From the NCBI GenBank assembly GCA_963794715.1, contig CAWCEY010000009.1:94385-158384 (forward strand): DNA of 64,000 nucleotides. The letters run 5' to 3'. Position 1 is the first letter of the stretch. Each line of letters begins with the position of its first letter. The DNA is from an uncultured Solirubrobacterales bacterium (GTDB taxonomy: Bacteria; Actinomycetota; Thermoleophilia; Solirubrobacterales; Solirubrobacteraceae). Made by a program: the position numbers and the translations under genes. Below, in pieces: positions 6,124-29,225 of this stretch. The notes beneath the pieces were generated by a model. That model worked only from the letters and a program-made list of their open reading frames with translations, was not told the origin of the DNA and made no database searches.

Positions 6124-6169
6124 GCCGCGCGCAGCGGTCTGCCGACGGGCCGCGTAAGATCTGAGCCGT

Positions 6170-8291: not shown

Positions 8292-8411
8292 GGCCTCAAT
8301 CGTATGACGCAGCGCCTTTGGCCGCGCGACCCAGCTACTATACTGAGAAAATCCGTAAAACACTGACCATACGCGCACAAAACCTGGACTTCAAGTCAGA
8401 TCGACACCGCT

Positions 8412-9890
8412 ATGCCCACTTTTTCCCTCGACGCGCAGCCGGAGGTGTTCTTCAGCACCGCCGCTACCAATGACGCGGTTGCGTACGCGGTGCAGACGGG
8501 ACGTGCCCGCAAGCTCGGGCCACGCCTATACACGAAGTCGATGAGCGGGGCGCCGGAGGATGTCTGCCGTCGCAATTGGGCGGCGGTCACCGCCGGCTAC
8601 TTCCCGGGGGCCGTTCTCACCGGCCGCTCGGCGTTCGCCTTCAGGCCGGCGGACGACGGGTCGGTATTTGTGAGCTCCCGGCAGGCCCGCGACGTGCGCG
8701 TCCCCGGCTTGCGCCTGCGCTCCCAGCGCGGGCCGGGCCGCCAGGAGGGCGATATGCCGTTCATGGGCCAGAACCTGTTCATCAGCTCCCGACCGCGGGC
8801 CTTTTTGGAGAACCTCAGCCTCTCCCGCTCACGTGCTGGCGCCGTGACGCGCACGCTGAGCCGGGAGGAGCTGGAGGAGGCGCTGGAGGAGTTCGGTCGC
8901 TATGACCCGGGCAGCCTGAATCGGCTGCGCGATGAGGCTCGCGCCCTAGCGGGACCCCTCCACGCCGAGCGCCAGTTCGGGCGGCTCGATGAGCTCATTG
9001 GCGGCCTGCTGCGCACGCGCAAGGTCGAGCTCTCCAGCCGCCGCGCCCGGGCGAGCGCCCGGGGCGAGCCCTTCGACCCCGCGCGGATCGAGGCGTTCGA
9101 GCAACTCGCCAACCACCTGCTGGGGGTGGGCTTGCCCTCCGTTCCCGAAGGCGCGTCGGCCGACATGAGCGTGCTGGCGTTTTACGAGGCCTACTTCTCC
9201 AACTACATCGAGGGGACAGAGTTCACTGTCGCCGAGGCCCGCGAAATCGTCTTCGCGGGACTGCTGCCACAGCAGCGCCCGCAGGACGCGCACGACATCT
9301 TGGAGACCTACCGGCTGGTCGCCGACCGTCACCAGCGTGGGCGCGCGCCGGGCAGGGCCGACGAGCTGGTGGCTATCATCCGCGACCAGCATCGAATGAT
9401 GCTCAGGGAACGTCCGGAGATCGGGCCCGGGCGCTACAAGCAGCGCAACAACCACGTCGGCGGGCACGAGTTCGTCGATCACCGACTCCTCGACGGCACG
9501 CTCCGCGAGGCCTTTCGCTTCTACGCATCGCTACCGGCCGGGTTTGCCCGGGCGGCCTTCGCGATGTTCGTGATCGCCGAGGTGCACCCGTTCGCCGACG
9601 GCAACGGCCGCACCGCGAGGCTGCTGATGAACTCCGAGCTGACCGCCGCCGGTCAGCAGCGCATCATCGTCACCACCCACGACCGTGGCGACTATCTCGC
9701 CGCGTTGCGGGGGATCAGCAACCATATGAACATACCGGCTTACATCTCGATGCTCGCCGAGCTGCAGCGCCGTACCGCGAGCATCGACTTCTCGACCCTC
9801 CCCGCGGCCGAACGCGACCTCCTGCGGGCAGCAGCGTTCACCGACCCCGACGTCGAGGAGCTGGCCGACCGGATCGACTGGCCGCGCTGA
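8412..9890 (+). CDS. Fic family protein, long form with N-terminal extension
   Basis: Canonical HPFADGNGRTAR motif; EAYFSNYIEGTEF. Confidence 0.88.
   Translation: MPTFSLDAQPEVFFSTAATNDAVAYAVQTGRARKLGPRLYTKSMSGAPEDVCRRNWAAVTAGYFPGAVLTGRSAFAFRPADDGSVFVSSRQARDVRVPGLRLRSQRGPGRQEGDMPFMGQNLFISSRPRAFLENLSLSRSRAGAVTRTLSREELEEALEEFGRYDPGSLNRLRDEARALAGPLHAERQFGRLDELIGGLLRTRKVELSSRRARASARGEPFDPARIEAFEQLANHLLGVGLPSVPEGASADMSVLAFYEAYFSNYIEGTEFTVAEAREIVFAGLLPQQRPQDAHDILETYRLVADRHQRGRAPGRADELVAIIRDQHRMMLRERPEIGPGRYKQRNNHVGGHEFVDHRLLDGTLREAFRFYASLPAGFARAAFAMFVIAEVHPFADGNGRTARLLMNSELTAAGQQRIIVTTHDRGDYLAALRGISNHMNIPAYISMLAELQRRTASIDFSTLPAAERDLLRAAAFTDPDVEELADRIDWPR
9855..9890 (+). repeat. 36-bp repeat shared by the 3' ends of the Fic and Uma2 genes (partner 10424-10459)
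   Basis: 33/36 identical; proteins end EELADRIDWPR* and EQLAERIDLPR*. Confidence 0.85.
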
Positions 9891-9937: not shown

Positions 9938-10459
9938 ATGCCCACGCTGGTGATGGACCCTGCTCCGGCCGAGATTGTCGCGCTGATCGAGCGTCGGCGT
10001 CGCCTCGGGCTCGACCACCGCGACGAGATTTGCGAAGGTGTCTACCGGATGAATCCACCGCCCTCGCACGAGCACCAGGTCATTCTGCAACAGCTGGCCG
10101 AGCTGCTCGGGCCGCTGGCGCGAGACGCCGGCCTGGAGGCCGTCATCCAAGAGTTCGGCCTGGGCACGTCCGACGAGTACCGCGTGCCCGACGGAGGCCT
10201 GCACCGCCCCGGTGCCGGCGGCGTCTGGCACCCCACCGCGGCGCTCGTCATCGAGATCGTCTCTCCCGGCGACGAGACGTGGAAGAAGCTCCCCTTCTAC
10301 GCCGCCCACCACGTCGACGAGCTGCTGATCATCGACCCGGCCAAGCGCACTGTCGATTGGCTCGGGCTCGACGGCGGCGAGTACCGCCCGATCGAGCGCA
10401 GCGGCCTGATCGACCTCGGCTCCGAGCAGCTGGCCGAGCGGATCGACTTGCCGCGCTGA
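9938..10459 (+). CDS. Uma2 (DUF820) PD-(D/E)XK endonuclease-fold protein
   Basis: YRVPDGG, LVIEIVSPGDETWKKLPFYAA. TATCCT lies 6 nt before the ATG (leaderless). Confidence 0.88.
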   Translation: MPTLVMDPAPAEIVALIERRRRLGLDHRDEICEGVYRMNPPPSHEHQVILQQLAELLGPLARDAGLEAVIQEFGLGTSDEYRVPDGGLHRPGAGGVWHPTAALVIEIVSPGDETWKKLPFYAAHHVDELLIIDPAKRTVDWLGLDGGEYRPIERSGLIDLGSEQLAERIDLPR

Positions 10460-10493
10460 ATCGACCAGTCCGCCGGCTCGCCACGCGCAACCT

Positions 10494-10706
10494 CCCGAGG
10501 ACATCCCCGACAAAGCGGTTTCGCTGCGGCGGATCGGGCGGCTGTTCGTGCCCTACCGCGTGCGGCTCGGGTTGCTGCTGGGGCTGATCGTGTTCGGCTC
10601 GATCCTCAGGGTCGCCTCGCCCTTCCTGCTGCGCGAAGCGGTCGACAAGGGGATCGTCGGGCACGACCTGGAACTGCTGACGTGGATGGTGGCGGGGATG
10701 ATCGCG
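10494..10706 (+). pseudogene. Start-less 213-bp fragment of the ABC transporter gene (direct repeat of 22060-22272)
   Basis: 10 mismatches over 213 bp by manual alignment; homology ends abruptly at 10706. Confidence 0.93.
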
Positions 10707-10738
10707 TTGACGCATGCGATTGGTAGCGTGCTCGACAT

Positions 10739-11392
10739 ATGAGTGGTTTCGAAGGTTTTCGCGATTCGCCGCAGGCACCGTTCTACCGAGCGGGCGCCCG
10801 CTCGCCCGATGACACCTGGAACGATGCCTCCAGGCGACTGGAGAAGACGATCGAATCCGCCACCGCGGCGGCCGGGCATCGGCCGATCGAGATGACCGTC
10901 GAGCGCGTGTGCGGCTGGCACCGGGGAATCTTCCTGAGCACATTCCCGCGCGAGGCCGGATACATCCGCTCCGACCATGAGCCCGCCGAATTCGCGATTC
11001 CGATCGACATCGACGGCGAGACCGTCACGACACCGATGCACGGCACGCTCCCACACAGCGAGATCCTCACGCGCCTGCGTGGCGCCTGCGAGACGTACAA
11101 CGCCAAGCAGGCCACGCTTCAGCGCCGGACGGGAGCGCTCACCGCCGTCGAGGGCGCCACACCCCCGGCGGAGCTGTACGCCGCGATCCTCGAGATCCAC
11201 CCCTTCATCGACGGCAACCTGCGCGCGGCCTACGTCGCGCTGCAGGTCGGGCTCGCTTCGCTGGGCCTGCCAACGGTCCGCTTCGGGCACGCAATCGACC
11301 GCCACGACGAGTGCCTGGGCTGGGCGATGCGGGGCGATGCCGAGCGCACGATCGCACCGCTGGCCGAGCTGATCGTGGAGCTGGCGCAATGA
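10739..11392 (+). CDS. Fic/Doc family protein with variant motif
   Basis: HPFIDGNLRAA (canonical HPFxDGNGRxxR). Confidence 0.75.
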   Translation: MSGFEGFRDSPQAPFYRAGARSPDDTWNDASRRLEKTIESATAAAGHRPIEMTVERVCGWHRGIFLSTFPREAGYIRSDHEPAEFAIPIDIDGETVTTPMHGTLPHSEILTRLRGACETYNAKQATLQRRTGALTAVEGATPPAELYAAILEIHPFIDGNLRAAYVALQVGLASLGLPTVRFGHAIDRHDECLGWAMRGDAERTIAPLAELIVELAQ

Positions 11393-11432
11393 CCACGCAA
11401 CGACGGGTCCATCACGCGCTATCCTCAAGGAC

Positions 11433-11636
11433 ATGACGAGGATCCGATACCGAGACCTGGATCTACCCCCCGGGCTCTGCATTGCTGACGGCAACGGCGT
11501 CAGACCGTGGGACGAGAACTCCGCCAAAGAGCTCGCCCTCGACGCCATGATCCTCTCCCAAGGCGCCGAGCGCGGCCAGGCAATGCTCGACGCCCTAGAG
11601 CAGACCGAGCACTCACCGGCCGTCTCCAGCCGCTGA
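11433..11636 (+). CDS. Small hypothetical protein downstream of Fic (possible partner)
   Basis: 67-aa ORF with AAGGA just upstream; no recognised family. Confidence 0.45.
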   Translation: MTRIRYRDLDLPPGLCIADGNGVRPWDENSAKELALDAMILSQGAERGQAMLDALEQTEHSPAVSSR

Positions 11637-11698
11637 ACATTGCAACGACCTCCCCGGGCGGGGATTGGAGTCGCGGCGCGGGCGTTAGAATCCTGTCT

Positions 11699-11908
11699 AT
11701 GACAGCTAAAGATCTGCTGCTGGAGCAGGCACCAAGTTGGAGTGATGCGCAGGCCACCGCGGCCCTGCGCGTGGTGGCGGCCCAAACCGCACTGGCGGCA
11801 TACCTCACCGACGAGGCGAACGGCTCGACTGAGGAGCTGGATGCGCGCGAGGACTGCTGGGCAGAGGCGAGTGCCCGCGAGGCGATCCTCGCGTCCGTCG
11901 ACTGCTGA
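11699..11908 (+). CDS. Small acidic helical protein, antitoxin-like
   Basis: TAGAAT-N7-ATG leaderless start; MTAKDLLLEQAPSWSDAQATAALRVV; acidic C-terminus. Confidence 0.55.
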   Translation: MTAKDLLLEQAPSWSDAQATAALRVVAAQTALAAYLTDEANGSTEELDAREDCWAEASAREAILASVDC

Positions 11909-11981
11909 ACCACCACGGCGCCCGCGGCAATCCGCCGTGGTACGCGGGTGCGGTATTTGTTCGGCTGGCTAAGATCTGGGC

Positions 11982-12191
11982 ATGGCATTGGCCCTGAAAC
12001 GAATCCACACCGACTTCTCCGGCTACGAAGGCCAGTGGGTCGCGATCGACATGCGTACGGGCAAGATCGTGATTGCCGACAAGGACCCGCATGTGGTCCT
12101 GCGCAAGGCCAAGGGCCGCAACCACGTAGTCGTGCATGGCCGCGTCCCGTACGCGGATGAGCCGCTCCGCGACCACTTCGGCTTTGCCTGA
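11982..12191 (+). CDS. DUF5678-like small protein
   Basis: YEGQWVAID...IVIADKD pattern; TAAGAT-N6-ATG leaderless start; overlaps the next gene. Confidence 0.65.
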   Translation: MALALKRIHTDFSGYEGQWVAIDMRTGKIVIADKDPHVVLRKAKGRNHVVVHGRVPYADEPLRDHFGFA

Positions 12192-12579
12192 GACACCCCC
12201 GCTGCCCTGGCTGTACGCGTACCAGGAGGACGCCCATTCGACCCGGCTCAGCCAGCCGATCCTGCGGCCGTTCGTGCTGGTCTCGCTCGTGCACGGCAGC
12301 CAGAGCACCTCGCTGCTGCAAGGCCTGGTCGACACCGGCGCCGACGCGATCCTCGCGAGCGACCTGCTCACCGTCGAGCTCGAGATCGACCTCGACGACA
12401 ACGAGGGCGAAGCCACCCACGCGGTCGGTGGCAAGGTGCTTGAGACCCGCTACAAGACGCTCGATCTGCGTCTGTATCCCAGCGACGGCGCCGAGGACTC
12501 CTCCGTCAGCTCTTCTTGCCCCCTTTGGTCTTGTGCTTGGTGCTCTTCGCGTGCACGGCCTTCTTCGCGCAGCCGGTGA
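12184..12579 (+). pseudogene. Retropepsin-like (clan AA) aspartic protease, probably 3'-truncated near 12500
   Basis: RP.V.V...GLVDTGAD motif; TTG start overlaps the DUF5678 stop; the last ~25 codons are antisense of the next gene. Confidence 0.65.
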
Positions 12580-15442
12580 CCGTGACCGGCGTGATCTGGT
12601 GGATTTCGGCGCCGTTCTGGGCGACGAATTCAGTCGGCATCTGCAGTGTCGCCGGCTTGGTCTGTTTGGCCTTGCGGGTGATCGTCTTCGTTTGGCCGTG
12701 GATCTTGACCGTGACCTTCTTCTTGACCGTGACGGTCTTTGTGGTCGCGCAGAGGTTCCCGAGCGCGGTGAGTGCGCTGTAGGGGCCCTCTGGGAGCGTC
12801 AGTTCGAAGCTCGTGACGGGCTGGTCGGGGACGGTCTTGAACGTGCTTGACGTGACGCCGGCTTTGCTGATGAACGTGGTGCCGACCAGGTCGATCGTGA
12901 ACCCGTAGCCCTGCAGCACGACGATGAGACTTGGCCACCCTTCGCCGCCGTGGGAGACGAAATACGCGGGGCCTTCCAGCGGGACCGGGAGGATCGGAGT
13001 GATCGCCCTGGCGTGCCCGATGATCGACGCCGGCGGGCACCCCGCGGGGTTGGCTTCAAACTGTGCGGCGGTGCACGCTTTCTGCAGCGTCGGCAGACGG
13101 GAGGGCAACTGCTCGGGGAGTTCGACTTTGACGCGGCTGATGTTGGCCTGGGTGCCGAGCGCGCCGGGAACCGTGAGCTTCGCGGTCAGGCTCGCGCCGT
13201 CCGCGCGGCTGGTCTTCGCAGAGGTGGAGACGGAGAACGAGGGCTTGAACGCGAGGCTTGAGCAGTCCGCGGCCTCAAACGGCGTGTTCACACTCACCGG
13301 GACCTGGTCTGAGGGGTCGGCAAAGTTCGCGCCGGCGCCGTCGATCGTGTTCGTGATCTGTAGGGGGCTGCAGTTGGTGGGGTTGATGATGAACTTACTG
13401 CGGTCCATGTACACCCGGATGTCGCGGACGTGTACGACGATGCCTTTGATGATGTGGGGGATTGGGTCTGAGCCGTTGGCTGAGACTTCGACCTGTGCGG
13501 TCGAAGGGTTGATGTCGAGCGCGAAGCGGATCACGACAGTCCCCAAATCGAATGGGCCCACCTTGGCCGAAGTGATCGAGACGATCGATAGCGGCGCGCC
13601 ATGATATGGGCCCGCCAGATAGATCTTGCCGGGTGTTTGCGCGAGTACGGTGCCGACGCCCGCTTCGACGATTGTGTGCCCGATTTCGCTTGAGGCGGGG
13701 CAGGAAGGGTTTGCTTCCTCTTGTGCGCCGGTCATGTTCTTTGACGCTTCGATCGCGGCTTCGGGGCAGAACGGGATCCCTGTGAGGTTGCCGGTCAGTC
13801 CCGGTGGCAGCGTGGTCGAGAACCTGGTGAGCTCTTGTTCGCCGTCTTCGCGGATGATCCGCAGGTAGAACGGGCTGTAGGTGCCGCCGGCGTTGTTCTG
13901 GGTGCCGGAGATTACCTGGGGATGGAATGGTGGCACGCCACCGGAGGGGCAGGGGCCTTCGCGGACGCCCTGGGTGATCTGGAACGGCTGGCTCAAGGAA
14001 AAGCTCGGTTCTGCGGGTGCTGACCACGGCGTCAGCTGCGCCTGGGTGCTGTATGACCCGCACGCTGGTGGGCTCACCAGCGGCGCGGTCGCGCCAGGAC
14101 GGAACTTCAGCGTGAACTTGCTGAACGGCTGCTGGGGATTATCATCAAACGTCGTCACCAGCTGCCCCGTCACCGGGTTCGGCTCGATCTTGCCCGCGAC
14201 CTTCACCACGATCCCACGCGCGGGATCCTTCGCCACGACATACAGCGCGAGCAGCGACCCACCCGGGTGCTGCGGATCGCCGAACGCGGGAACATTGTCA
14301 TACGGTGTGGCGATGTAGATCGCGCCCGGGATCTTTTCCGCGAGCACCGGTGTTTCGATTTCGATCGAGCCGATCTTCGATTCAGGCGGACAACCAACCC
14401 CCGGCAAGGATTCCGCCGTCTCGGCTTCATACTCGCCCCGGGTGCACGCCCCAAGCCCCGCCGCCAGCGACGGGTTGGCCGTCACCCCTTCCGGAAGCGT
14501 CACCACCGCATCCTTCAGATTCGACGCGGACCTCGCCGTCGGATCTTCCCACGTCTGCGGGTTCACCACCGAGAAATCCAAGCCAGTGGGCGATTCCGCA
14601 GCGACCGTCGAGGGCGTCACCTCGATCGAGGGATGAAACGGCAAGCGTTCGCATTCGACCATCGGAGCGATCTGCGTGGTTTCTTCGAGCACTTCTTCAG
14701 GATCCTGCCAATCATTGCTCTTGAATGTCGCGGTGAACGGTTCCGAAGAGCAGCTCGTCGGGTTGGCGAGATACGGACGAGGACTGACGTCCGCCGACAG
14801 CCCACCACCGTGGCACACACCGTTCGTGCATTCCTGGCCACGCTGTTCGTCATGAGCCGGGTCAGCCGGAACCCCCCACACCGTGACAGACACTTCGGAA
14901 AGTTCGGTCAAACCCTGAAGATCTTCGCTGGTGATCGTCAGCCCCAGATCGCTAGGACGCACCTTGACCACCAAATTCTGAGTGATAATGCCACCAAGAT
15001 TGAACGCGAACATCGCCGCGATACCAGGATCGATGACTTCCATGTTATACAAAGGAAGAGTGACCAGCTCCGCGGTGGGACGATCGGGAGCACCCGAGAT
15101 CGCGAAGCTGATCGTCCCCACCTGAGAATCCGGCGAGCACTGCGGATGTTTGCTGTTGAGGAGCTCCGAAGCCGTGCAGGTCGCAACAGCGGTGTTGTTG
15201 CCGACGAAACCGGCGGGCAGTTCGACCGAGGTGGTCCTCGCGTTGCCCTGCGTCTGACCCGCGCCGTTATGAACGAATTTGAAAGCGGTCGTGAGATCCT
15301 CATGAACACCGGCCTGCTGAGTAGACGGAGTGACATGAAACGAGCCGGGCTGGATCGCAAACGCGCCGGCACCCGCCGGCAACACACCCCCCGCAAGAAC
15401 GCATACGGCAACGACCAGCCTCAAACGAGCAGCAGCGCTCAT
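12506..15442 (-). CDS. Large secreted protein (978 aa) with four ~230-aa Cys-containing repeats and a Lys-rich tail
   Basis: Signal peptide (RLRLVVAVCVLAGGVLPAGAGA); LP.G...C...CP..S.IG occurs four times; C-terminus KKAVHAKSTKHKTKGGKKS. Confidence 0.88.
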   Translation of the reverse strand: MSAAARLRLVVAVCVLAGGVLPAGAGAFAIQPGSFHVTPSTQQAGVHEDLTTAFKFVHNGAGQTQGNARTTSVELPAGFVGNNTAVATCTASELLNSKHPQCSPDSQVGTISFAISGAPDRPTAELVTLPLYNMEVIDPGIAAMFAFNLGGIITQNLVVKVRPSDLGLTITSEDLQGLTELSEVSVTVWGVPADPAHDEQRGQECTNGVCHGGGLSADVSPRPYLANPTSCSSEPFTATFKSNDWQDPEEVLEETTQIAPMVECERLPFHPSIEVTPSTVAAESPTGLDFSVVNPQTWEDPTARSASNLKDAVVTLPEGVTANPSLAAGLGACTRGEYEAETAESLPGVGCPPESKIGSIEIETPVLAEKIPGAIYIATPYDNVPAFGDPQHPGGSLLALYVVAKDPARGIVVKVAGKIEPNPVTGQLVTTFDDNPQQPFSKFTLKFRPGATAPLVSPPACGSYSTQAQLTPWSAPAEPSFSLSQPFQITQGVREGPCPSGGVPPFHPQVISGTQNNAGGTYSPFYLRIIREDGEQELTRFSTTLPPGLTGNLTGIPFCPEAAIEASKNMTGAQEEANPSCPASSEIGHTIVEAGVGTVLAQTPGKIYLAGPYHGAPLSIVSITSAKVGPFDLGTVVIRFALDINPSTAQVEVSANGSDPIPHIIKGIVVHVRDIRVYMDRSKFIINPTNCSPLQITNTIDGAGANFADPSDQVPVSVNTPFEAADCSSLAFKPSFSVSTSAKTSRADGASLTAKLTVPGALGTQANISRVKVELPEQLPSRLPTLQKACTAAQFEANPAGCPPASIIGHARAITPILPVPLEGPAYFVSHGGEGWPSLIVVLQGYGFTIDLVGTTFISKAGVTSSTFKTVPDQPVTSFELTLPEGPYSALTALGNLCATTKTVTVKKKVTVKIHGQTKTITRKAKQTKPATLQMPTEFVAQNGAEIHQITPVTVTGCAKKAVHAKSTKHKTKGGKKS

Positions 15443-18400
15443 CGCTTCACCCTCCCGTTCTTGCCGGCCTTCCCGGCTTTTTTCTTGGGTCTCGTCCTAT
15501 GCTTGCGCTTCTTGGTTTTCTTCGTGGTGGCATGCTTCGGTTTCCCGCCTTTCACCGCCGGTTTGCCGGACGGCACCGGCGTCACGTTCCCCGACCCGGC
15601 GAACGTCGAGCTCGACGGCGTCGCGTCGACCGGAGCGCTCGGCGGCGTTGAGCACGCATCCGCTTCGCATTCCACCGTCGAGGCCGCCGGCGGCGCGAAA
15701 CCACCATCGATCCGCACATCATAAAGATCCCCAGCGGTGTCCTGATCGGCCGGAGCCAGCTGCGAGTGAGTGGCTATCAGAACGTCCCGGCCCGAGGGAT
15801 CCGTACCGAGCAACACATTACGGAACCCATCAATCCCGTTCGTCAACAGAGCGACACAACCCGCGACCCGAGAACAACCATCGACACCATTCGCACGCCA
15901 CTCATACACATCCCAACTATGGCTGGGCGGTACAAACGTTTCTGGTTCTTCACCATCGATATCCTGGGGAACGAGCTCAGAGACCGACCTGAAGAACGCG
16001 AAGCGACCGTCGTCGGACCCCCACGTAGGACGCGGCGTAGCACCATTTATATACTTTTCTTTGCCCGCGCCGAGCTGCCCATAAGGCGCAAACTCGCCCC
16101 CTCCGGCCGGATGGAAGGCAGTGCACGCGATGCAGGTCGCAGTACCCGAATCGCGGTCATAGCGATACGGCCCCGCACCCGGCGCACCGAAGAAGCCCTG
16201 CTGAAAATAGAAGAAGCGGCCGTCCGCGGTGACGAAGAAGTGCGCGGACGCCTGGCCTTCTTCGCGGTCCTGGAAGATGAACTGGAGCTTTTCGCTGGCT
16301 ACGTCGAAAACGTACCAATTTTGGATCCCCTTGTTGTAACTGGTGATATCAGGGGTCGGCGGCGCTTCGGGCGTGAGTTGACGGGGCGAACTAAAATAGA
16401 CAGTGCTGGCGTCATTGGAGACCGTCGCGGCGATTCTTTCACCTGCCCTCTGCCCAAGGATCGCCTTGCTGCCGTCGAGCACGAGCGGCTTGAGTGTCCG
16501 AGTTTTGGTGTCGTAGCTGAACGTGATCTGTTCGCCGTCGTGGCCGAGCAAGAGCATCGCGCCGTTGGGGCTCGCGGCGTCGAAGGTATATTCGCCGATG
16601 TCAACGGTTTCAGACCCGTTCACCCGCATGTACAGGTGGCTGTGATATACGGCCGGGTCATAGCGGAGCCCACCCGCTGGACACGGGCCGTCAGGGATCG
16701 CTTCGAAGAAGATCTTGGAGCCGTCTTCGGAGATCGCGTGGGCAGCGAAGACGTCCACGTAACCTTCGAAGTTTTCGCTGCCGAGGGGAACCCTGGCGCC
16801 GCAGACGCCGATCGTGTGGCCCTGCGAATCGACGTTCACCTGCGCCAGGCCGGCCCGGGCGGTGTATTCATACAGGTCGGGAAGGCCCGCGGCGGTCGTG
16901 CTCTGAGGCAGTCCGGGCAACGCGTGGTCACGGGTCATCACCACAAGCTTGCTGAGCGTCGGCGTGGCAGCCGCCCACATATCCTTGCCTTCACCATTTT
17001 CGAGCAACTGATTGAAAGGTGTCGAAGCGACAGGCGTGTAAGGGCCACCGTCGGGACCAAGCAGCAGATCCTGGTCAGCTGAATGACTCTGATAAGTCGG
17101 TTCGGAATAGCGAGCGAGGGCGACCTGCGAAAGATCCGCGCTGAAGATTTCCGGCAGATACGTGTCCTCCCCAGAGCCAGGCGGCGTGAGCGAGGTCATC
17201 CGCCAGCCGGCAGTGGGATCGCGGTCAAAGACATAATCGGACACGAACGGGTTGGGATCCGAGCCGTACTTCGCGAGCGTCCGCAGCAAGACGTGTTCGC
17301 CGCCTTCGCCGAGACGCGCCAGCGAGGAGGCCGAGCCGTAGTTGAAATTGTCCTGCGCGCCGTTCTTACTCGCCGGCGTGATCAACTCATAGGCACGACA
17401 GTCCGGCAGGCGAGCCGCGAGCCCGGAACGGAAACTTTCGTTCGGACAGGACACCGACGGCTGCGCAGGCGCGGGAACAGGGACAGTGAACGTCTGTTCA
17501 GCACCAGCGATAACCCCCGCTTCGCTATGCGCAAGCAGACGATAATGATAAGTGACGCCAGACTGCAATCCAGGCAGCGTGACACCCACGATCTGCGACT
17601 GGTAGAGCAGGAGATTGGCCTTACCTTCCTGTGAGCGTTCTTCAGTGCGGTGAGCCCCGACGCCAAGGTCAACGTCGGGGCTCGTCTCAGGGTTGGCAAA
17701 ACCTTCCGCTTCGAAGTGTTGCTGAGTGACGTACTCGACGTGATAGTGAGCGTCAGTCGTCACGCTGCGAGGATCGACCGAGCCGAGGACGCGGAACGAT
17801 TCGCCGTCGAGGACCCGGGTGGCAAACGTGACCGCGGCGGGCGGACCTGCGGTTTCGAAGCCGATCGGCGAGGTGGTCTGGGAGCCAGCCGCGTTTTCGG
17901 CAAAGAGGCGCACATAGTAGATGGTGGCCGGGTTCAGGCCGGTGAGGTCGGTGGAGAAGCTGTGAGGCTCCTGGTCGGCTTCGCCGGCGGGGATGGTTCC
18001 TTCAACGCCCGGGGTCCACGGACCGGTTTCCGAGCTGGCCGTTTCAAAGCGCCAATGCGTTTCGGAGCTGTCGGGGATGACGGTGCCTGGGACGTGGGCG
18101 GCGGTAGCGGAGACGTTGTCGGGCAAGCCGACGTTCGGGCGCGGCTGGGCCGGTGAGGTGGCGAATGTGGCCGTCTCAGTCGCGGAGCCTAGGGAGTTGG
18201 AGGCGAACGCGCGAACGTAGTAGACGGTCTGGGGGGTGAGGCCGGTGAGGTGCGCGACCTTCGTCGGAGCAAAATCTTCAGCGACGCTGACGCTGCCTTC
18301 GGTGCCCGCGACCGGGATGTAAAAACCATTTTCTTCGGTCGAGTAAGCAAGGTGATATTCAGTCGGGATGCCATCCGTGTCCAGTTCGGCGAAGACACTG

Positions 18401-19029
18401 GCCGCAGTAGGGGTAGGCAACGAAGCAGAACACATATGGGGTGTAGTGTTTTCGAAGGACTGTGGCACCCTTTCGATTCCCTCGCCGCTGCCACATTTAG
18501 CAACAAGAAATTCGGGAGCAGCGGGCGCCTTCGTGGTGAATTCGGCCTGGTTCGGTGGCGCTTCGCCGAAAGAGTTCTTCGCGGTGACGCGGACAGTGTA
18601 GGTGGTGCTGGGATGAAGCCGCTTGATCGATTGGCCGCCGACAGTTTCAAACGAGCACTGTTCGGTGCAGGTGAGACTTGTGAACAGCTGCCAGGCGGCG
18701 GGGTTGGAAGGTTCGGTGGTGTATTCGAGGCGTGCTTCGGTCGTTGCGCCTTCGGCCGAAATGATCTGATCGACTTCGGCGCGAGTGGAGTATACGTGTT
18801 CGATTTCGAGCGTAGCGAGGCGAGGGGGGCCGGCGGCAACTGCGGGCGCCGTGGCGACGGCGAGGAAGAGGAGGAGAACAGCAGGGAGAACGGCCATGAC
18901 CGCCGACCGGCGAAGGGCAGGAGCGGATGAGGGCGCGCCACTGCCCCGGGCCAAGCGCAAGACACCGAGACGAGAAACGACACCCCTCGTGGCGTCAGGC
19001 GTCTTTTGGGATCGCTCCAGATAAGTCAC
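15439..19029 (-). CDS. Large secreted protein: about four FN3-like repeats, a beta-propeller-like region and a Lys-rich tail
   Basis: GTG 19029 follows GAGAAAGG; LTGL.P.T.YYVR repeats; ISEDGSKIFF and SDDGRFAFF blades; ATGA overlap with the downstream gene. Confidence 0.85.
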   Translation of the reverse strand: MTYLERSQKTPDATRGVVSRLGVLRLARGSGAPSSAPALRRSAVMAVLPAVLLLFLAVATAPAVAAGPPRLATLEIEHVYSTRAEVDQIISAEGATTEARLEYTTEPSNPAAWQLFTSLTCTEQCSFETVGGQSIKRLHPSTTYTVRVTAKNSFGEAPPNQAEFTTKAPAAPEFLVAKCGSGEGIERVPQSFENTTPHMCSASLPTPTAASVFAELDTDGIPTEYHLAYSTEENGFYIPVAGTEGSVSVAEDFAPTKVAHLTGLTPQTVYYVRAFASNSLGSATETATFATSPAQPRPNVGLPDNVSATAAHVPGTVIPDSSETHWRFETASSETGPWTPGVEGTIPAGEADQEPHSFSTDLTGLNPATIYYVRLFAENAAGSQTTSPIGFETAGPPAAVTFATRVLDGESFRVLGSVDPRSVTTDAHYHVEYVTQQHFEAEGFANPETSPDVDLGVGAHRTEERSQEGKANLLLYQSQIVGVTLPGLQSGVTYHYRLLAHSEAGVIAGAEQTFTVPVPAPAQPSVSCPNESFRSGLAARLPDCRAYELITPASKNGAQDNFNYGSASSLARLGEGGEHVLLRTLAKYGSDPNPFVSDYVFDRDPTAGWRMTSLTPPGSGEDTYLPEIFSADLSQVALARYSEPTYQSHSADQDLLLGPDGGPYTPVASTPFNQLLENGEGKDMWAAATPTLSKLVVMTRDHALPGLPQSTTAAGLPDLYEYTARAGLAQVNVDSQGHTIGVCGARVPLGSENFEGYVDVFAAHAISEDGSKIFFEAIPDGPCPAGGLRYDPAVYHSHLYMRVNGSETVDIGEYTFDAASPNGAMLLLGHDGEQITFSYDTKTRTLKPLVLDGSKAILGQRAGERIAATVSNDASTVYFSSPRQLTPEAPPTPDITSYNKGIQNWYVFDVASEKLQFIFQDREEGQASAHFFVTADGRFFYFQQGFFGAPGAGPYRYDRDSGTATCIACTAFHPAGGGEFAPYGQLGAGKEKYINGATPRPTWGSDDGRFAFFRSVSELVPQDIDGEEPETFVPPSHSWDVYEWRANGVDGCSRVAGCVALLTNGIDGFRNVLLGTDPSGRDVLIATHSQLAPADQDTAGDLYDVRIDGGFAPPAASTVECEADACSTPPSAPVDATPSSSTFAGSGNVTPVPSGKPAVKGGKPKHATTKKTKKRKHRTRPKKKAGKAGKNGRVKR

Positions 19030-19170
19030 GGGCGTACCTTTCTCGTTGGTGTGGCGCATGTGGTCTAGTCCGGTGAATGAGATGTGTTGGCGATATGCAG
19101 AGATGGGCCACCGAGGCCTCCCCGTGGCCGACTGGCGACCGCGGGGAGACACCCAGCTTGGCAAGCGCCG

Positions 19171-20022
19171 CTAGGGAGCGGTCACCGCCCACGAACCGGA
19201 GAAGCCGGCACCATATCCCGGTTCTGGTTCTTCCGGAGCGACAAAGATCATGTGAGCGCCACTGGTAGGGGTGGTGGTCGCCTCGGGCTTTTCATCTTGG
19301 AATTCGAAGAATTCCATATTTCCGTTTGCCGCGGTTTCAGCGTACACACAGAGGTTGCCTTCGACGGCAGACGGCACCGCCGCGGATCCCGGACATTCGG
19401 CGGGCGCCGTGTGACCTTCCACTTCAGCAGCGGTGACAAAATGAGCCTTCCCCTTGGCGAGCGGCGCCGCCAGGGGTATCGCGTAGGAGAGCGGTTCGAC
19501 GTAGAGACCCGCGGTATGGACGCTGAAGCCCCAGGTGCCGGTCTCGGTCTTGCCTTCGGGGAGCGTTTCCGTGAAGCCGGTCTGGCCGTTTTCGCCGTTG
19601 CACGCATACGTCGTCCCGCTCGCGGAGACGAACTTCGAGCCGCCGGCTTTGCAGTTGACGCCCGCGGGCTCTTTGCTACTGGTGACGCTCACCCCAGCGG
19701 CGCCGTCTTGACCGTTGGTCCCATTGGTGGCGTCTTTGCCCGCCGCGCCTGCTGGTCCTGCCGGCCCGGCGGGGCCGGCAGCTCCGGTAGCGCCCTGGGG
19801 GCCGGCGGGGCCGCGAGGGCCGGCCTTCGTTTTGGGCTTGGCCTTGCTCTTGGCGATAGTCGCAACCGGGGCTCCGCGCCTGACGGAAGCAGTCGTCTTC
19901 GAGCCGGTACCGCCGCCCCTGCCACCGCTCGCGGCGAACGCGCCACCGGTGATCGCGAAGACCAGCGCCACAAAGGCCAGGATCGTCGCGGGGGTAATGT
20001 GCCTACGTAGTGTCTGGAACAT
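19171..20022 (-). CDS. Secreted collagen-like (Gly-X-Y) protein
   Basis: AGGAGG RBS; signal peptide; GPRGPAGPQGATGAAGPAGPAGPAGAAGKD run; Cys-containing C-terminal domain. Confidence 0.88.
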   Translation of the reverse strand: MFQTLRRHITPATILAFVALVFAITGGAFAASGGRGGGTGSKTTASVRRGAPVATIAKSKAKPKTKAGPRGPAGPQGATGAAGPAGPAGPAGAAGKDATNGTNGQDGAAGVSVTSSKEPAGVNCKAGGSKFVSASGTTYACNGENGQTGFTETLPEGKTETGTWGFSVHTAGLYVEPLSYAIPLAAPLAKGKAHFVTAAEVEGHTAPAECPGSAAVPSAVEGNLCVYAETAANGNMEFFEFQDEKPEATTTPTSGAHMIFVAPEEPEPGYGAGFSGSWAVTAP

Positions 20023-20132
20023 CGTTCATCTCCTCCTAAGGAGTACGGAGGGAACAGACGACGCCCCTCGGTTGTTGTTGTGCTGCGCGCCCGAGGGGCG
20101 CGGGAAGATTGGAGTAGTGCAACCAAGCGGTG

Positions 20133-21221
20133 TCACGCTGCCTCGCCCTCGTCGCGGGTGAGGACGCTGAGGCGCCGCGCGACCTGGCCGCCCAATGGTG
20201 TGAGCCGCCACGCGTTCGGCTCGCCGGAGAGACGACCCCCGCCCGTATTCACCGTGAGACCCAGACCCTCCAAGCGCCGCAAAAGCTTTGAGATCTGCCC
20301 CGGGTCGATGATCCCCGCACGCTCCGCGACCGCCCGGTTGCTGGCACCCGAGAGCTCGCCGACGCACCCGAGCACCCGCGCGGTGCGATAGGTGAGACGC
20401 ATATTCACCTCATCCAGCGGATCGCGCTCCTCACCCACGGAGGACCGCTCGCCCTCCGGCGCCGGAGCCGGCACGGGGGCAGGACGCCGTTGTTCGCGAC
20501 GAGCGGCCCTTGGCCCGAGGTACTGCAGCGCGATCATCCCCATCAGCTCGTCCAAGAGGTCGGTCAACGGCCTGCTGTCGCCGCTGCGCAACCGCGCGTA
20601 GATGACGCCGAGCGCGCCGCCCACGAGACCTTCCGCAGTCACCAACGTGCACTCCGCCCCACGCGGCCCCTCCCCGCGGCCCTCATCCAGGACCGCCGCC
20701 AGCCACGCGAGGACCTGCTCACGACGTTCCAAAGTCTGCGGCCCACCGTGCAACGCATGCACAACCCAGATCCGCGCCAGCAACGGCTCGCGCTCCAGAA
20801 ACGACAGGATCACCCACAGCCCGCCGCGGACCCGCTCACGCCACTCCAGGCCCTCAAGACCCGCCGCGGCGAGATCCCGCTCGACGCGCTCCACGACCGC
20901 GTCGATCAACGCGACCAGGCACGTTTCGCGGTTCTCGAACAACTCGTAGAAGGTCCGCCGCGAGACCTTCGCCCGTGCGGCGATCCGCGTCACCGTGCTC
21001 TGCTCAAAACCAAACTCGTCGATCGTCGCCGCGACCGCGACCAACAAACGCGAATGCTGAATCTCCTCAACCTGCACCCGCGGCGCACCCCGCAAGGAAA
21101 CCCGCTGCTCACGCCGCCGCGCCAAACGCCCCTCCACCGGCAAAGCGCGCTTAGCCACACGCGGCCGCACCGCCGTCGCCCGACCACTGCTGGCCGATCT
21201 CCGATCGGTCGACGCGGCCAT
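20133..21221 (-). CDS. TetR/AcrR-type regulator with an extra C-terminal winged-helix domain
   Basis: N-terminal TVTRIAARAKVSRRTFYELF; C-terminal SNRAVAERAGIIDPGQISKLLRRLEGLGL. Confidence 0.82.
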   Translation of the reverse strand: MAASTDRRSASSGRATAVRPRVAKRALPVEGRLARRREQRVSLRGAPRVQVEEIQHSRLLVAVAATIDEFGFEQSTVTRIAARAKVSRRTFYELFENRETCLVALIDAVVERVERDLAAAGLEGLEWRERVRGGLWVILSFLEREPLLARIWVVHALHGGPQTLERREQVLAWLAAVLDEGRGEGPRGAECTLVTAEGLVGGALGVIYARLRSGDSRPLTDLLDELMGMIALQYLGPRAARREQRRPAPVPAPAPEGERSSVGEERDPLDEVNMRLTYRTARVLGCVGELSGASNRAVAERAGIIDPGQISKLLRRLEGLGLTVNTGGGRLSGEPNAWRLTPLGGQVARRLSVLTRDEGEAA

Positions 21222-21418
21222 CAGCAGCCACCCCCCACGAGCGCCCGTGAACCAGTGACCCCAGTGGCCCAGTTCAGAGGCGCCGAGAACCTACCCCCCG
21301 CGGGGACGAAGCAAAGACGGCGCGAATGCCCCAGCCCTTCCCTTCCCCCCTCCGGGGGGTTCCGGGCGGCCCGCGAAAGCGGGACGCAGGGGGGCTCCGA
21401 GGCTAGACCGCTAGCCGA

Positions 21419-21441
21419 AGAGAGAGAGAGAGAGAGAGAGA
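21419..21441. repeat. (AG)11 dinucleotide microsatellite
   Basis: Read directly from the sequence. Confidence 0.97.
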
Positions 21442-21683
21442 TGCGACAGCGCCAAGCTGGCGCATCTAGCATCAGCCCTACGGGCCGACGCGCACATCCC
21501 CATCACGAATCTCCCTCTAGAAACCACGCTCAAACAACTCCCTCATCGATCCGATCCAGTCCCTCTCCCACACCTACAAGACCCTGCTAGCGCCTGAAGT
21601 CAACCACAAGGCGGTATGACCCCAACCAGACCCTATGTACACCGGCCGCCCCCACAACGGTGGGACGACCAGCCATGCGGCAC

Positions 21684-21712
21684 ACCGTAGCCGAGCTACG
21701 TATAAATGTCAA
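21684..21712 (-). promoter_or_regulatory. Putative sigma-70 promoter TTGACA-N17-TACGGT facing the TetR-like gene
   Basis: Reverse complement of TGTCAA 21707-21712 and ACCGTA 21684-21689; 17-bp spacer. Confidence 0.65.
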
Positions 21713-21987
21713 GCCCTACCCGCCCGGCGGAGGCTTTAGGGGTCCACGACAAAGTATCTGACGGTCCGGTGCGGCCGCTTCGCGGCGGTCTGCGCCACCC
21801 GCGATGCTCGCCGTGCCACCAGCACGGCTGCGCTCGCGTGCGTCGCATCCCATCCCCGAATCGACCACCCCGATCCCGCCATCTACTTTGTCGCGAACCC
21901 TTAGAGCCGGAGCCCCCTCCCAATCTTCCCTGTCCGGTGGCTGGATACAGTCATCTGGATGAACGTGCGGCGATTTGAGACGGTGCG

Positions 21988-23892
21988 ATGAGCAGCTTCC
22001 ACGGCGAGGGCCGCGGTGGACAGGGGGGCGGCCCGCCGCGTGCGCCCAAAGCGCTCCGCCCCGAGGACATCCCCGACAAACCGGTTTCCCTGCGGCGGAT
22101 CGGGCGGCTGTTCGTGCCCTATCGCGTGCGGCTGGGGCTGCTGCTGGGGCTGATCGTGTTCGGCTCGATCCTCAGCGTCGCCTCGCCGTTCCTGCTGCGC
22201 GAAGCGGTCGACAAGGGGATCGTCGGGCACGACCTGGAACTGCTCACGTGGCTGGTGGCGGGCATGATCGCGCTGGCGATCATCAACGGCGTGATCGGCG
22301 TGGCGCAGACGTGGATCTCCAACCAGGTCGGCCAGCGCGTGATGCACGACCTGCGCGCCGCCGTGTACGCGCACCTGCAGCGGATGTCGCTGGCGTTCTT
22401 CACGCGCACCCGCTCGGGCGAGGTGCAGGCGCGGATCGCCTACGACATCGGGGGCATCGACGACGTCGTCACGAGCACCGCGACCTCCACCGTCTCCACG
22501 ATCGCCACCGTCACCGCGACGATCGTCGCGATGTTCGCGCTGAGTTGGCAGCTGACCCTGTTCTCGCTGATCCTGCTGCCGTTCTTCGTGTGGCTGACGC
22601 GCCGCGTGGGCAACGAGCGCCGGCGCATCCAGTCGGTGCGCCAGGGCCGGCTCGCCGACATGTCCACGCTGGTCGAGGAGTCGCTGTCGGTGTCGGGCAT
22701 CCTGCTCGGCAAAACGATGGGCCGCTCCGGCGAGCTGGTCGAGCGCTTCTCCTCGGAGTCCTCCGAGCTCGCCGACCTGGAGGTGCGCGCGCGGATGGCG
22801 GGCCGCTGGCGGATGGCCTCGGTGCAGATGAGCTTCGCGATCATGCCCGCCGCCGTGTACTGGTTTTCCGGCTACACCTCCGTGCACGGTCACGCTGTGA
22901 TCTCGATCGGGACCGTGGTCGCCTTCACCACGCTGCAGACCCGCCTGCTGTTCCCGATGCAGCAGCTGCTGTCGGTGGGCCTAGAAGTGCAGACCTCGCT
23001 GGCGCTGTTCGGGCGGATCTTCGAGTACCTCGACCTGCCGATCGACATCGTCGAACGCCCCGGCGCCCGGCCGCTCGGCGCGGGCGCGGCGAGCCGCGAT
23101 GGCGCGGTGGGCCGGGAGAACGGAACGGGCCCCCGCGATGGCGTCGCCTGCGAGGTGCGCCTGGAGGACGTGTGGTTTCGCTACCGACCCGACGGCCCGT
23201 GGACGCTGCGGGAGATCGCCGCCGAGATCCCCGCGGGGACGCGCACCGCGCTGGTGGGCGAGACTGGCTCGGGCAAGACCACGCTCGCCTACCTCGTCGC
23301 GCGTCTGTACGAGCCCGAGCGCGGGCGCATCACGATCGACGGCACCGACATCCGCGACGTGACGCTCGCCTCGCTCGCCGCCACCGTGGGGCTGGTCTCG
23401 CAGGAGACCTATCTGTTCCACTCCTCGATCGGCGAGAACCTCCGCTTCGCCTGTCCGGAGGCAAGCGACGAGCAGATCGAAGACGCCGCGCGCGCCGCGC
23501 AGATCCACGAGCTGATCGTCTCGCTGCCCGACGGCTACGACACCCCCGTGGGCGAGCGCGGCTACCGCTTCAGCGGCGGGGAGAAGCAGCGCATCGCGAT
23601 CGCGCGCACGATTCTGCGCAACCCGCCGGTGCTGATCCTCGACGAGGCCACCTCCGCCCTGGACACCGAGACCGAGCGCGCGGTGCAGCTCGCGCTCGAC
23701 GAGCTCTCCCGCGGGCGCACCACAATCGCGATCGCCCACCGCCTCTCCACCGTGCGCGACGCCGACCAGATCCTCGTGCTCGACGCGGGGCGCATAGTGG
23801 AGCGCGGCACGCACGATGAGCTGCAGGAGCTGGGGGGACGCTACGCGGCGCTGACGGGGCGGGCGGAGACGGACTCCGCCGCGCTGGCGTGA
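21988..23892 (+). CDS. ABC exporter, fused permease/ATPase
   Basis: TM domain; Walker [10 protein letters not shown]; FSGGEKQR; [10 protein letters not shown]. Confidence 0.95.
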
Positions 23893-23997
23893 GCCTGACG
23901 CATATTTTGGGAGCGTCCGCGCGCGTCTGCTGATCAACGACCGCGCGGGGGCTGGGCCTCCGTGCCCAGCCGCCAGCCGCACCGCTTCGGCCGGCGG

Positions 23998-24765
23998 TTA
24001 CGCGACGGCGTCGATGTTGAGGCGGATGTAGTCGACGACCACGGGCTCCCCCAATTCGGCGAGCACGGTGTCCATGAACCGCTCGCGCAACTCCTCGGGC
24101 AGCTGCTGATAATGAGGGCCCAGCACGATCTCCGAGAGAAACGCACGCGGGTGCTCGGGCTGCTGCGGGGCAGGCTGCAACCAGCACTCGGCGCTCGCGA
24201 AGCCAGCGCCCAGCAGGCGCTCCTCGGTCTCCTCGGGGCCGGCGTAATTCCACGGCGCCCGCCAGTCGCGGAAGTGCGCGGCGTACGGTTGGCGCGCCAG
24301 GACTTCGTTGGCGACTCCCCGCAGCACGTCGATGTTGCCCTGCCCCCCGCACTGCGCCACCAGCCGCCCGCCGGGGCGCAGCACGCCGTGCAGACGGGAG
24401 AACAGTCGCCGGTGGTCGAGGATCCAGTGGAAGGTGGCGGTCGAGAGGATCGCATCCACCGGCTCGTCCACCGCCAGCTCCAGCAGGTCCCCCGCCCGCA
24501 CCTCCACTCGCTCCGGGCCGATCCCCAACCGCCCCAGCCGCTCGCGCGCGGCGGACACCATCGAGGGCGAGGCATCCACCGCGATCACCCGCCCCCGCGG
24601 CAGCCGCTCAACGAGCGCCTCGGTCACACGTCCCGACCCGCAGCCGGCGTCGATCACGGTCTCCTCGCCGGCGAGCGCCAGCCGATCGAGCACAGCCCGC
24701 CCCAGCGCCTCCATCGGCGCGGAGATGCGGTCGTAGACGCCGCCGTCCCACTCGCGTACGGTCAT
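23998..24765 (-). CDS. Class I SAM-dependent methyltransferase (Tam-like)
   Basis: VIDAGCGSGRVT; DAILSTATFHW. Confidence 0.88.
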   Translation of the reverse strand: MTVREWDGGVYDRISAPMEALGRAVLDRLALAGEETVIDAGCGSGRVTEALVERLPRGRVIAVDASPSMVSAARERLGRLGIGPERVEVRAGDLLELAVDEPVDAILSTATFHWILDHRRLFSRLHGVLRPGGRLVAQCGGQGNIDVLRGVANEVLARQPYAAHFRDWRAPWNYAGPEETEERLLGAGFASAECWLQPAPQQPEHPRAFLSEIVLGPHYQQLPEELRERFMDTVLAELGEPVVVDYIRLNIDAVA

Positions 24766-24768
24766 GCT

Positions 24769-25704: not shown

Positions 25705-25744
25705 CCGGGCATTATCCGTCTGAAGCGCACCCTACGATCCATCA

Positions 25745-27205: not shown

Positions 27206-27291
27206 GCCGTTGGCCGGGGATCGTCCGCGCGGGCGGCTTGCCTGCCGCGCGCCTGGGCGCGGGCATCCGTGCCCGCGACGACCGCTGCCAC

Positions 27292-28401: not shown

Positions 28402-28501
28402 TCTCGGGCGAATCTAGCGCCCCTTCCGGCGGGGTGTGATGGGCTCTTGTGCCGACAGGTTCGCACCCCTCCGCCGAACGCGCGGCTCTGGCGAGCCCAG
28501 C

Positions 28502-28900
28502 CTACCCCGTGAGCGCCGAGGCGATGTCCGTGTGCCGGAAGTCCTCGCCCTTGAACAGCAGCGGCTCTCCCGTCGTCCTTGCCAGCGCGTAGGAGAAGCA
28601 GTCGCCGAAATTCAGGCCGGCAGGGTGGCCGCTGCCCTTCCCGAAATCGCGGTAGGCCTCGCGCGCGATCCGCGCATGGCTCGCCGTCACCGGTTCGATC
28701 CCGATGCCCGCGGTGATTAATAGCTCGTCCACGCGCCGGCTGGCGATCGCATCCCCCGCGCGGTCGATGACCGCCCCCACCTCCACATAGCTGGCCGCGG
28801 ACAGCCGACGTACGCTCGCCGACTCGATCGCATCCGCGCATGCCGCTGCCTCCGGCTCGGCGCGAAGGATCGCGATGATGGCCGAGGTGTCGAGGATCAC
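28502..28900 (-). CDS. vapC: VapC PIN-domain toxin
   Basis: [11 protein letters not shown]; [12 protein letters not shown]. Confidence 0.95.
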
Positions 28901-29151: not shown

Positions 29152-29158
29152 TGGTTGC

Positions 29159-29198: not shown

Positions 29199-29225
29199 CG
29201 AGCCCCCGATAGCAGACATCGAGAC

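Follow-up and report, generated by a model that had tools for sequence, protein, structure and literature searches.

The stretch of DNA analyzed here, 64,000 nt of contig CAWCEY010000009.1 from an uncultured soil member of the Solirubrobacterales (hereafter the window, to which all coordinates refer), encodes a core ABC exporter, a 5′ part of whose gene occurs a second time upstream of the intact copy. This second copy, here designated ABC′, is probably a dead and eroding fragment of the exporter gene, left behind as the scar of a Campbell-type or homology-facilitated insertion at a recombination hotspot, and not the attachment (att) site of a mobile island. A preliminary description of the locus had offered two mechanisms, homology-facilitated import or an att site inside the ABC gene with the recombinase lost or acting in trans; import or duplication via ABC homology fits the evidence best, while the att site is not supported. 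For comparison, a species collection was searched with the ABC protein, which returned 516 candidate stretches encoding a relative; the best 80 constitute the analyzed set, and all 80 ABC loci are from species-representative genomes of the Solirubrobacterales (Solirubrobacteraceae). Every genome compared is a metagenome-assembled genome (MAG); one of them, L001, is a near-clonal relative of the window and stems from a separate sample and a separate assembly.

The two copies of the repeat, 10494–10706 and 22060–22272, align without gaps, are identical at 203 of 213 positions and read in the frame of the ABC gene as codons 25–95. The ten substitutions comprise seven synonymous and three nonsynonymous ones (A32P, R63S and M89L, left to right), and recomputation thus returned the counts first reported. 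The left edge of homology at 10494 is sharp, and local alignment did not convincingly extend the left copy any further upstream; the right edge fades over about 10707–10713, with 4 of the 6 bases at 10707–10712 still matching, and lies 26 nt before the start codon of a gene for a small Fic-domain protein (Fic217; Table 1). As had been noticed before, the left copy lacks a start codon; codons 1–24 and the leader are missing as well, and an in-frame stop is located upstream. The longest block identical between the copies measures 56 nt. Logan contigs from independent runs cover 10038–11135 (run X1) and 10649–12821 (contig L087), both at 100% identity; the left junctions, for which misassembly had been named as a possible objection, are therefore not an assembly error and the observation stands.

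The site at which the duplication is found is variable throughout the group. In 53 of the 80 relatives a DUF480 gene directly adjoins the ABC gene, with a median of 135 nt between matched residues, and in 22 the two are separated by 0.5–5.9 kb of other cargo, among which PIN toxins, thioredoxin/DsbA proteins, TIG-PD40 proteins, PAS-EAL proteins and an IS110 fragment were sampled; in the remaining five DUF480 is out of reach behind larger blocks, which carry metal transporters in L023 and L036. The other three (L001, L003 and L009) are the only relatives sharing with the window a module upstream of ABC, which consists of genes for a TetR-family regulator, a collagen-like protein, an FN3-repeat protein and a protein of about 1,000 aa, and which is preceded by a conserved noncoding “head.” Adjoining flanks in 53 of 80 relatives and varied cargo elsewhere mark the site as a general variable spot. 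The DNA between the copies is accessory, as had been proposed; the possibility that it is core synteny conserved in all relatives was checked, and its content is not conserved among them. The repeat does not bracket an 11.3-kb island, as had been thought: compared with the empty site, homology is lost near 8330 on the left side and picked up again near 21717/21901 on the right, so that the inserted block is larger (about 8.33–21.72 kb), with the left repeat copy 2.1 kb within it and not at its border. In trees of the flanking genes, the module-less L002, L073 and L007 are as close to the window as is L003; the distribution of the module is patchy.

The arrangement in the other module-bearing genomes sets the repeat apart from the module. 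L003 has the order DUF480(−), Uma2(−), PIN-MazE, module, TetR, head, leader, ABC and, followed through to DUF480, contains no ABC fragment despite a homologous module at the site. For L009, the fetched pieces amount to ~54 kb of the contig, ~42 kb of them upstream of ABC, with the left end of the contig lying beyond; four heads but no ABC fragment were found in this stretch. The presence of the module in L003 (and in the examined part of L009) without the repeat indicates that the duplication is an accident of one lineage and not the integration signature of an island.

That lineage includes L001, where the order is DUF480, Fic-496, a 114-nt remnant of Uma2(−), ABC′, DUF5678, protease-like, ~1000-aa, FN3, collagen-like, TetR and ABC. 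There, ABC′ starts ~40 nt inside a module head and continues through the native leader and codons 1–52, after which it is joined straight to the equivalent of window position 11949; contig L088 independently confirms this joint. The L001 fragment differs from the left copy of the window at 1 of 83 aligned positions, has the window-left state at all five variable sites of the shared stretch and shares with it the derived bases at 10515, 10568 and 10572, which shows the two fragments to be orthologous. Taken together, the two truncations imply an ancestral left copy of at least 430 bp comprising a head tail, the leader and codons 1–97, which the two lineages, to judge from what each retains, appear to have eroded from opposite ends. 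The head tail on the left copy of L001 is of the L003 type (1/40 mismatches) and differs from the right-hand heads of L001 and the window at 8/40, the comparison spanning 40 nt only; later recombination could also account for this difference in type. Likewise, the Uma2 remnant of L001 is 92% identical to the intact Uma2 gene of L003 and 80% identical to that of the window; remnant and L003 gene lie on the same strand, and the window gene is inverted relative to both. An L003-type head tail together with an L003-like Uma2 remnant agrees with a left side that was already resident and resembled L003, and with the arrival of a different module. The left copy is itself a mosaic, since its codons 1–24 differ from the right copies at 1/72 positions and codons 25–52 at 6–7/83; gene conversion or the original crossover may lie within it. 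Several of these statements on the ancestry of the fragment concern segments of 40–85 nt.

The substitutions between the two copies carry a mixed signal. Synonymous changes make up 29% of all possible single substitutions in the repeat stretch, so that neutral decay confined to one copy would hardly yield 7 of 10 (binomial p about 0.009). When polarized against 67 orthologs, five of the ten differences are derived and private to the left copy (three synonymous, two nonsynonymous), one is derived in the right copy, and four fall on sites polymorphic among functional alleles, including the M/L site (M in 16/68). The two private nonsynonymous changes hit residues at which the orthologs have P in 45/68 and S in 65/68, a signature of decay. 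Once the private sites are masked, 4–5 differences separate the left copy from the alleles of L001, L073 and the window, and by this measure it belongs to the local allele group rather than to an identifiable sister lineage. The synonymous excess noted in the preliminary description is thus real, but the origin of the fragment from a sister-lineage allele that had been read from it is not shown, half of the differences being private to the left copy.

The excess can be accounted for by the history of the right copy. Identity between the window and L001 is 99.5% over 4615–9852 and 100% over 11977–12200, drops to about 85% in the protease-like gene from about 12201 onward, just past the DUF5678 stop codon, and to 79% in the gene for the 978-aa surface protein and in TetR, amounts to about 93% from ABC through about 26400, and returns to 99.4% at 26401–26900 and 99.9% at 28394–29893. 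These values delimit a recombination tract of ~14 kb. Its left breakpoint is confirmed in both versions, L087 agreeing with the window and L088 with L001, each at 100%, and L089 represents a third allele; a boundary at ABC′ had been the first impression but was overturned by base-by-base comparison. In the 3′ part of ABC, window and L001 diverge by 6.9%, compared with 5.7–6.5% to other species, and as the window is no closer to L001 than to these, one or both of the functional ABC copies were imported on the tract; the allele swapped may be that of the right, functional copy. A functional copy that evolves and is replaced under purifying selection, next to a decaying fragment, explains the synonymous excess without a foreign fragment. 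The tract is not singular: from 1030 to 33535 the window is a mosaic of segments 99.5–100% and ~92–93% identical to the L001 contig (e.g., 92.4% at 29943–33535), with 81% at 26901–27393, which indicates frequent recombination with lineages about 7% divergent.

The course of events that we favor would begin with an L003-like ancestor carrying DUF480, Uma2(−) and, further on, a module A followed by TetR, head, leader and ABC. A second block, consisting of Fic217, small open reading frames (ORFs), DUF5678, the protease-like gene, a module B with TetR and head, the leader and the 5′ end of ABC to about codon 97, would then have entered the 5′ part of the ABC gene. One of its ends would have been joined by homology within the leader/ABC 5′ segment and the other by an illegitimate joint at about codon 97, which is marked by the loss of homology at 10707–10713, 26 nt before the start of Fic217. 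The likeliest form would be a single crossover of a circularized fragment (Campbell type), the alternative a homology-facilitated illegitimate event; either would leave a truncated copy on the left, a complete functional copy on the right and the new DNA in between. An insertion scar requires a target-gene segment duplicated around the insert, truncated on one side and complete on the other, and this is what is observed. Module A would subsequently have been deleted, ~40 nt of its promoter end surviving in L001, and a Fic gene would have inserted beside DUF480. A Uma2′–Uma2 piece would have taken the place of the fragment's leader and codons 1–24 in the window lineage; in the L001 lineage, codons 53–97 and everything through 11948 would have been deleted. 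At present, the locus is exchanged between lineages by ordinary homologous recombination, as on the tract of ~14 kb (12.2–26.4 kb) that includes the functional ABC gene; conserved flanks, differing cargo and homologous exchange across the locus are the marks of a hotspot. We infer the steps up to the deletion of module A; the later contrasts between the lineages are seen directly, and it is again by deduction that one state or the other is taken as ancestral.

Several points weigh against this history. Gene conversion between the copies, for which the mosaic of the left copy (1/72 versus 6–7/83) speaks, may have blurred the record. As all genomes are MAGs, chimeras of strains within a contig could produce some of the identity mosaic; independent contigs support the key joints, whereas the right end of the tract (~26.4 kb) is placed by the identity profile. 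Further, the absence of ABC′ from L009 holds for the ~54 kb examined. Finally, a tandem duplication in situ yields the same topology, and recombination on the right side at a later time could have produced the difference in head type.

Such a duplication in place would have spanned about 11.6 kb, from the region upstream of Fic217 through ABC codon 97; its first copy would then have been mostly deleted, and divergence would have followed through decay on the left and allelic replacement on the right. Its topology equals that observed, tandem arrays of modules do exist at this locus in L009, the masked left copy groups with the alleles of the window, L001 and L073, codons 1–24 of the left copy in L001 are nearly those of the right copies, and a recombination tract over the right copy is demonstrated. 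Yet an extra deletion of ~11 kb is needed, and the head tail of the left copy is L003-like and not like the right-hand heads; it appears to be only these differing head types that disfavor duplication in situ, which we regard as possible but rather unlikely. A mis-joining of strain variants during metagenome assembly as the source of the left fragment is extremely improbable: the community does hold several related strains, and runs X1 and X3 contain variants of 90–95% identity, but independent contigs reproduce both left junctions, and L001, from its own sample and assembly, has the orthologous fragment with a confirmed joint of its own.

A site-specific integrative island with its att site in the 5′ part of ABC, the recombinase being lost or acting in trans and the two copies representing attL and attR, would likewise explain why 11.35 kb of accessory DNA lies between direct repeats and why the gene is whole and functional again on one side. 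Some elements do insert at the 5′ end of a gene and provide it with a new 5′ end, SXT in prfC being an example. At this locus, however, such an origin is very improbable. No integrase, recombinase or transposase is encoded by the coding-like ORFs between 8.4 and 22 kb, as judged by Pfam, NCBIfam and PADLOC scans, in agreement with what had been read from the sequence before, and no integrase was found in L001, L003 or the sampled hotspot inserts, where L060 gave the sole related hit, a fragment of an IS110 transposase. The left copy lies within the inserted DNA rather than at its edge, the same site is occupied by the module without a repeat in L003 and in ~54 kb of L009, the fragments of L001 and the window end differently, the ancestral repeat of at least 430 bp included ~40 nt of the module's own promoter region, and the cargo is a multi-copy chromosomal paralog found also at unrelated loci; the proposal of an att site inside the ABC gene is given up on these grounds. 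Nor was an in-register excision joint seen in the contigs of runs X1–X3, which drop rare variants and have a coverage of about 3–6×. A joint 10547>22180 in run X3 was rejected as a sign of excision, as it is 66 nt out of register, has a side of 22 nt and derives from a relative of 90–95% identity. RecA-dependent deletion of the whole island, which had been suggested, is physically conceivable given the 56-nt identical block, but the three runs offer no joint that would attest to it; in the window, deletion between the copies would leave ABC without promoter, start codon and codons 1–24, and a gene that all relatives conserve would lose its function. The search for strains in which Uma2 stands directly beside ABC, proposed as a check, was run on the relatives, and in none of them does Uma2 or the 492-aa Fic gene (Fic492) adjoin ABC.

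Insertion by one-ended homology, as preferred here, is an event of an ordinary, known kind. In Campbell-type integration, as with suicide plasmids, the insert likewise comes to lie between duplicated target-gene segments of a few hundred base pairs, one truncated and one complete, without the need for a site-specific recombinase; in E. coli conjugation, single crossovers of circular molecules gave rise to lacZ duplications of 109–950 bp flanking the insert (PMC3240628). The present event differs in being natural and old, in that the truncated copy has lost both ends, differently in two lineages, and in that where the incoming DNA came from, and that it was circular, is deduced rather than observed. 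Homology-facilitated illegitimate recombination (HFIR; de Vries and Wackernagel 2002; Prudhomme et al. 2002; cited through PMC5361080 and PMC3240628) shares with it one homologous anchor, here the leader and the 5′ end of ABC, one illegitimate joint, and the gain of foreign genes beside a conserved gene. HFIR usually results in deletions, and its classical products delete recipient DNA, whereas a duplication is found here; further, single-crossover events outnumbered true HFIR in the conjugation experiments (PMC3240628). HFIR-like displacement leaving orphaned gene pieces has been proposed for type VI secretion system (T6SS) and Rhs loci (PMC5361080). The orphans of Rhs, contact-dependent inhibition (CDI) and T6SS effector arrays resemble ABC′ in that an anchored incoming block displaces part of a resident gene, leaving a relic beside the new functional copy; here, the relic is an upstream 5′ fragment of a housekeeping-type ABC exporter, and there is neither a toxin-immunity logic nor a repeated array of relics. 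With hotspots flanked by core genes, the locus has in common conserved flanks (DUF480 and ABC), cargo varying between species, the absence of integrases and homologous exchange; nothing essential differs, and the locus is an example from an uncultured clade of Solirubrobacterales, with PIN toxins, DsbA/thioredoxin, TIG-PD40 and PAS-EAL proteins, metal transporters and TetR surface-protein modules as cargo. Of the earlier interpretation as a whole, homology-facilitated import came nearest to the evidence, once it is added that we are dealing with an old event, a relic fragment and a recombination hotspot; a mobile island is without support.

Table 1. Features of the ABC/ABC′ locus and its surroundings, by position in the window
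Feature	Position	Strand	Basis or remark
Sigma-70 factor	5128–6123	+	Identity with L001 gene calls
DsbD_TM	6910–7686	−	Identity with L001 gene calls
DUF480 gene, conserved left flank of the variable site	7683–8378	−	Pfam PF04337, E 2e-54
Fic-domain protein, 492 aa, SoFic-like (Fic492)	8412–9890	+	Pfam Fic, E 4e-13; PADLOC SoFic, E 1e-16
Uma2-family endonuclease gene	9938–10459	+	Pfam PF05685, E 2e-16
ABC′, relic of codons 25–97 (left repeat copy)	10494–10712	+	Alignment to ABC gene
Second Fic-domain protein, 217 aa (Fic217)	10739–11392	+	Pfam Fic, E 2.7e-5
Small ORF, 67 aa, unassigned	11433–11636	+	Coding-like GC3; called as gene in L087; no family hit
DUF5678-like protein, 69 aa	11982–12191	+	Weak Pfam PF18929, E 0.002, below gathering score
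Retropepsin-like protein, 147 aa	12136–12579	+	Coding-like GC3; faint gag-asp_proteas hit; DTGA motif read from sequence
Recombination tract, ~14 kb	12201–26400		Identity profile; 79–95% identity to L001 versus 99.5–100% background
Secreted all-beta multi-Ig-like protein, 978 aa	12506–15442	−	Signal peptide; AF2 model
FN3/Big-repeat surface protein, ORF of 1241 aa	15439–19164	−	Pfam fn3, FN3_DSCAM, Pur_ac_phosph_N, Big_10
Collagen-triple-helix-repeat protein, 283 aa, N-terminal signal or anchor	19171–20022	−	Pfam Collagen; NCBIfam SclB-like
TetR-family regulator, first gene of the module	20133–21221	−	Pfam TetR_N; 85–91% aa identity in L001, L003, L009
Conserved noncoding module head, ~320 nt, upstream of TetR	21401–21716	−	Conservation across module copies
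165-nt insert with 25-nt imperfect terminal inverted repeats	21736–21900		TTAG on both sides
Native ABC leader	21901–21987 (plus 21717–21735)	+	Shared with relatives
Intact core ABC exporter, fused TMD-NBD, 634 aa	21988–23892	+	Pfam ABC_membrane, ABC_tran; GC3 0.95
Right repeat copy	22060–22278	+	Inside intact ABC gene

The surface-protein module of the inserted DNA is found elsewhere, too. Its gene order, TetR, collagen-like, FN3, ~1000-aa, recurs at an unrelated locus in L082 (4050–12979), and in the L009 contig (L083, L084) modules are arrayed in tandem, together with group II introns and a PIN pair, over the ~54 kb fetched; two genes for group II intron reverse transcriptases (RVT_1 plus GIIM) lie inside this array (L083:13571–14845 and 19401–20651). 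By this distribution, the module is a multi-copy chromosomal paralog and not a mobile element. The 978-aa protein belongs to a family of >2000 unannotated homologs, several per genome, without a Pfam hit; its predicted fold is a row of all-beta, Ig-like domains (AlphaFold2, AF2, model with a mean predicted local distance difference test, pLDDT, of 78.8), for which an archaeal S-layer protein, integrin legs and adhesins are the best PDB matches, at the level of domains only (TM about 0.13). The true start of the 1241-aa ORF is probably internal. A GC dip between 12.5 and 19.5 kb was considered as a sign of foreign origin and dismissed, low GC being common to the gene family in every genome and locus examined.

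The head stands upstream of every module copy in the contigs of L001, L003 and L009 with 87–92% identity (81% in L082), and is thus better conserved than the TetR coding DNA (79–84% identical). It contains a (CT)11 run, and its outer end, on the minus strand, reads TTGACA-N17-TACGGT, which looks promoter-like by eye; a sigma-70 consensus scan of 21150–22050 did not flag it and returned neither promoter nor terminator. Consensus folding of the head gave almost no covariation, the copies being too similar. It is an improbable idea that the TetR/surface modules form a cassette system in which the head serves as a recombination or regulatory site and new modules are stacked upstream of resident genes; ABC′ would then be a by-product, and the ABC promoter and leader retained in L001 would have been co-opted for the adjacent plus-strand genes.

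Between head and ABC gene lies the native leader, which is also found in L005, L073 and L011, where there is no TetR module, and in part in L004. In the window, the loop of its hairpin, GGCTC-TTTA-GAGCC, is split by the 165-nt insert, which is missing from L001, L003 and L009 and has no second copy in any sequence examined; it is at most a candidate miniature inverted-repeat transposable element (MITE). In the dead left copy of L001 (L001:240–270), the leader hairpin reads GCCCC-TTA-GGGGC, two double compensatory changes keeping the stem; this hairpin resembles the joined ends of the window's 165-nt insert. An Rfam scan of 8–24 kb had no match.

Genes were distinguished from spurious ORFs by the GC content at third codon positions (GC3) and by gene calls in relatives (L001, L087), and all coding-like ORFs between 8.4 and 22 kb were scanned with Pfam, NCBIfam and PADLOC; the ABC gene itself encodes transmembrane and nucleotide-binding domains (TMD-NBD) in one chain. 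A 306-aa minus-strand ORF at 11500–12420 was rejected on the basis of GC3 and the L001 gene calls, the real genes there being on the plus strand, as was, through the L001 gene calls, a 598-aa minus-strand ORF at 6005–7801; in L001, the same calls place an Asp/Arg hydroxylase between the sigma-70 factor and DsbD_TM. The Fic492 gene is 99.5% identical to L001 up to 9852 and unrelated beyond. Its last 49 nt (9842–9890) are 86% identical to 10411–10459, the 3′ end of Uma2, so its last ~13 codons are a fused Uma2 tail; a joint 10424>9872, present in contigs of runs X1 and X2, suggests a tandem Uma2–Uma2 arrangement elsewhere as the source of this tail. A metagenome scan with Fic492 yielded distant homologs only (≤72%, mostly 40–50%), and neither strain-level contexts nor a case of Fic492 adjoining an intact ABC gene. 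The Uma2 gene of the window, judging from the comparison with L001 and L003, is likely a recent replacement in the window lineage; exact-protein look-ups with it and with DUF480 gave no match, probably because of differing called start codons. Fic217 is missing from L001, where 10579–11948 is deleted, and the DUF5678-like protein is identical there. Elsewhere in the window, an intergenic tandem array with a 24-nt period and about 13 copies (4447–4767) and a 56-nt tandem duplication (3448–3559) apparently differ in copy number from L001.

No mobile-element machinery is needed to produce a partial gene duplication that resembles an att pair. The repeat described here is probably a fossil of one-ended recombination at a hotspot, whose erosion is seen under way in two near-clonal genomes; for annotation, it follows that repeats around accessory DNA should be compared with empty and with otherwise occupied sites before an integrative island is called. 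The locus also documents frequent homologous exchange in uncultured soil Solirubrobacterales, with tracts of ~10–15 kb at about 7% divergence, and it points to modules of surface proteins under TetR control, a large multi-copy family as yet unannotated, whose importance may exceed that of the repeat itself.

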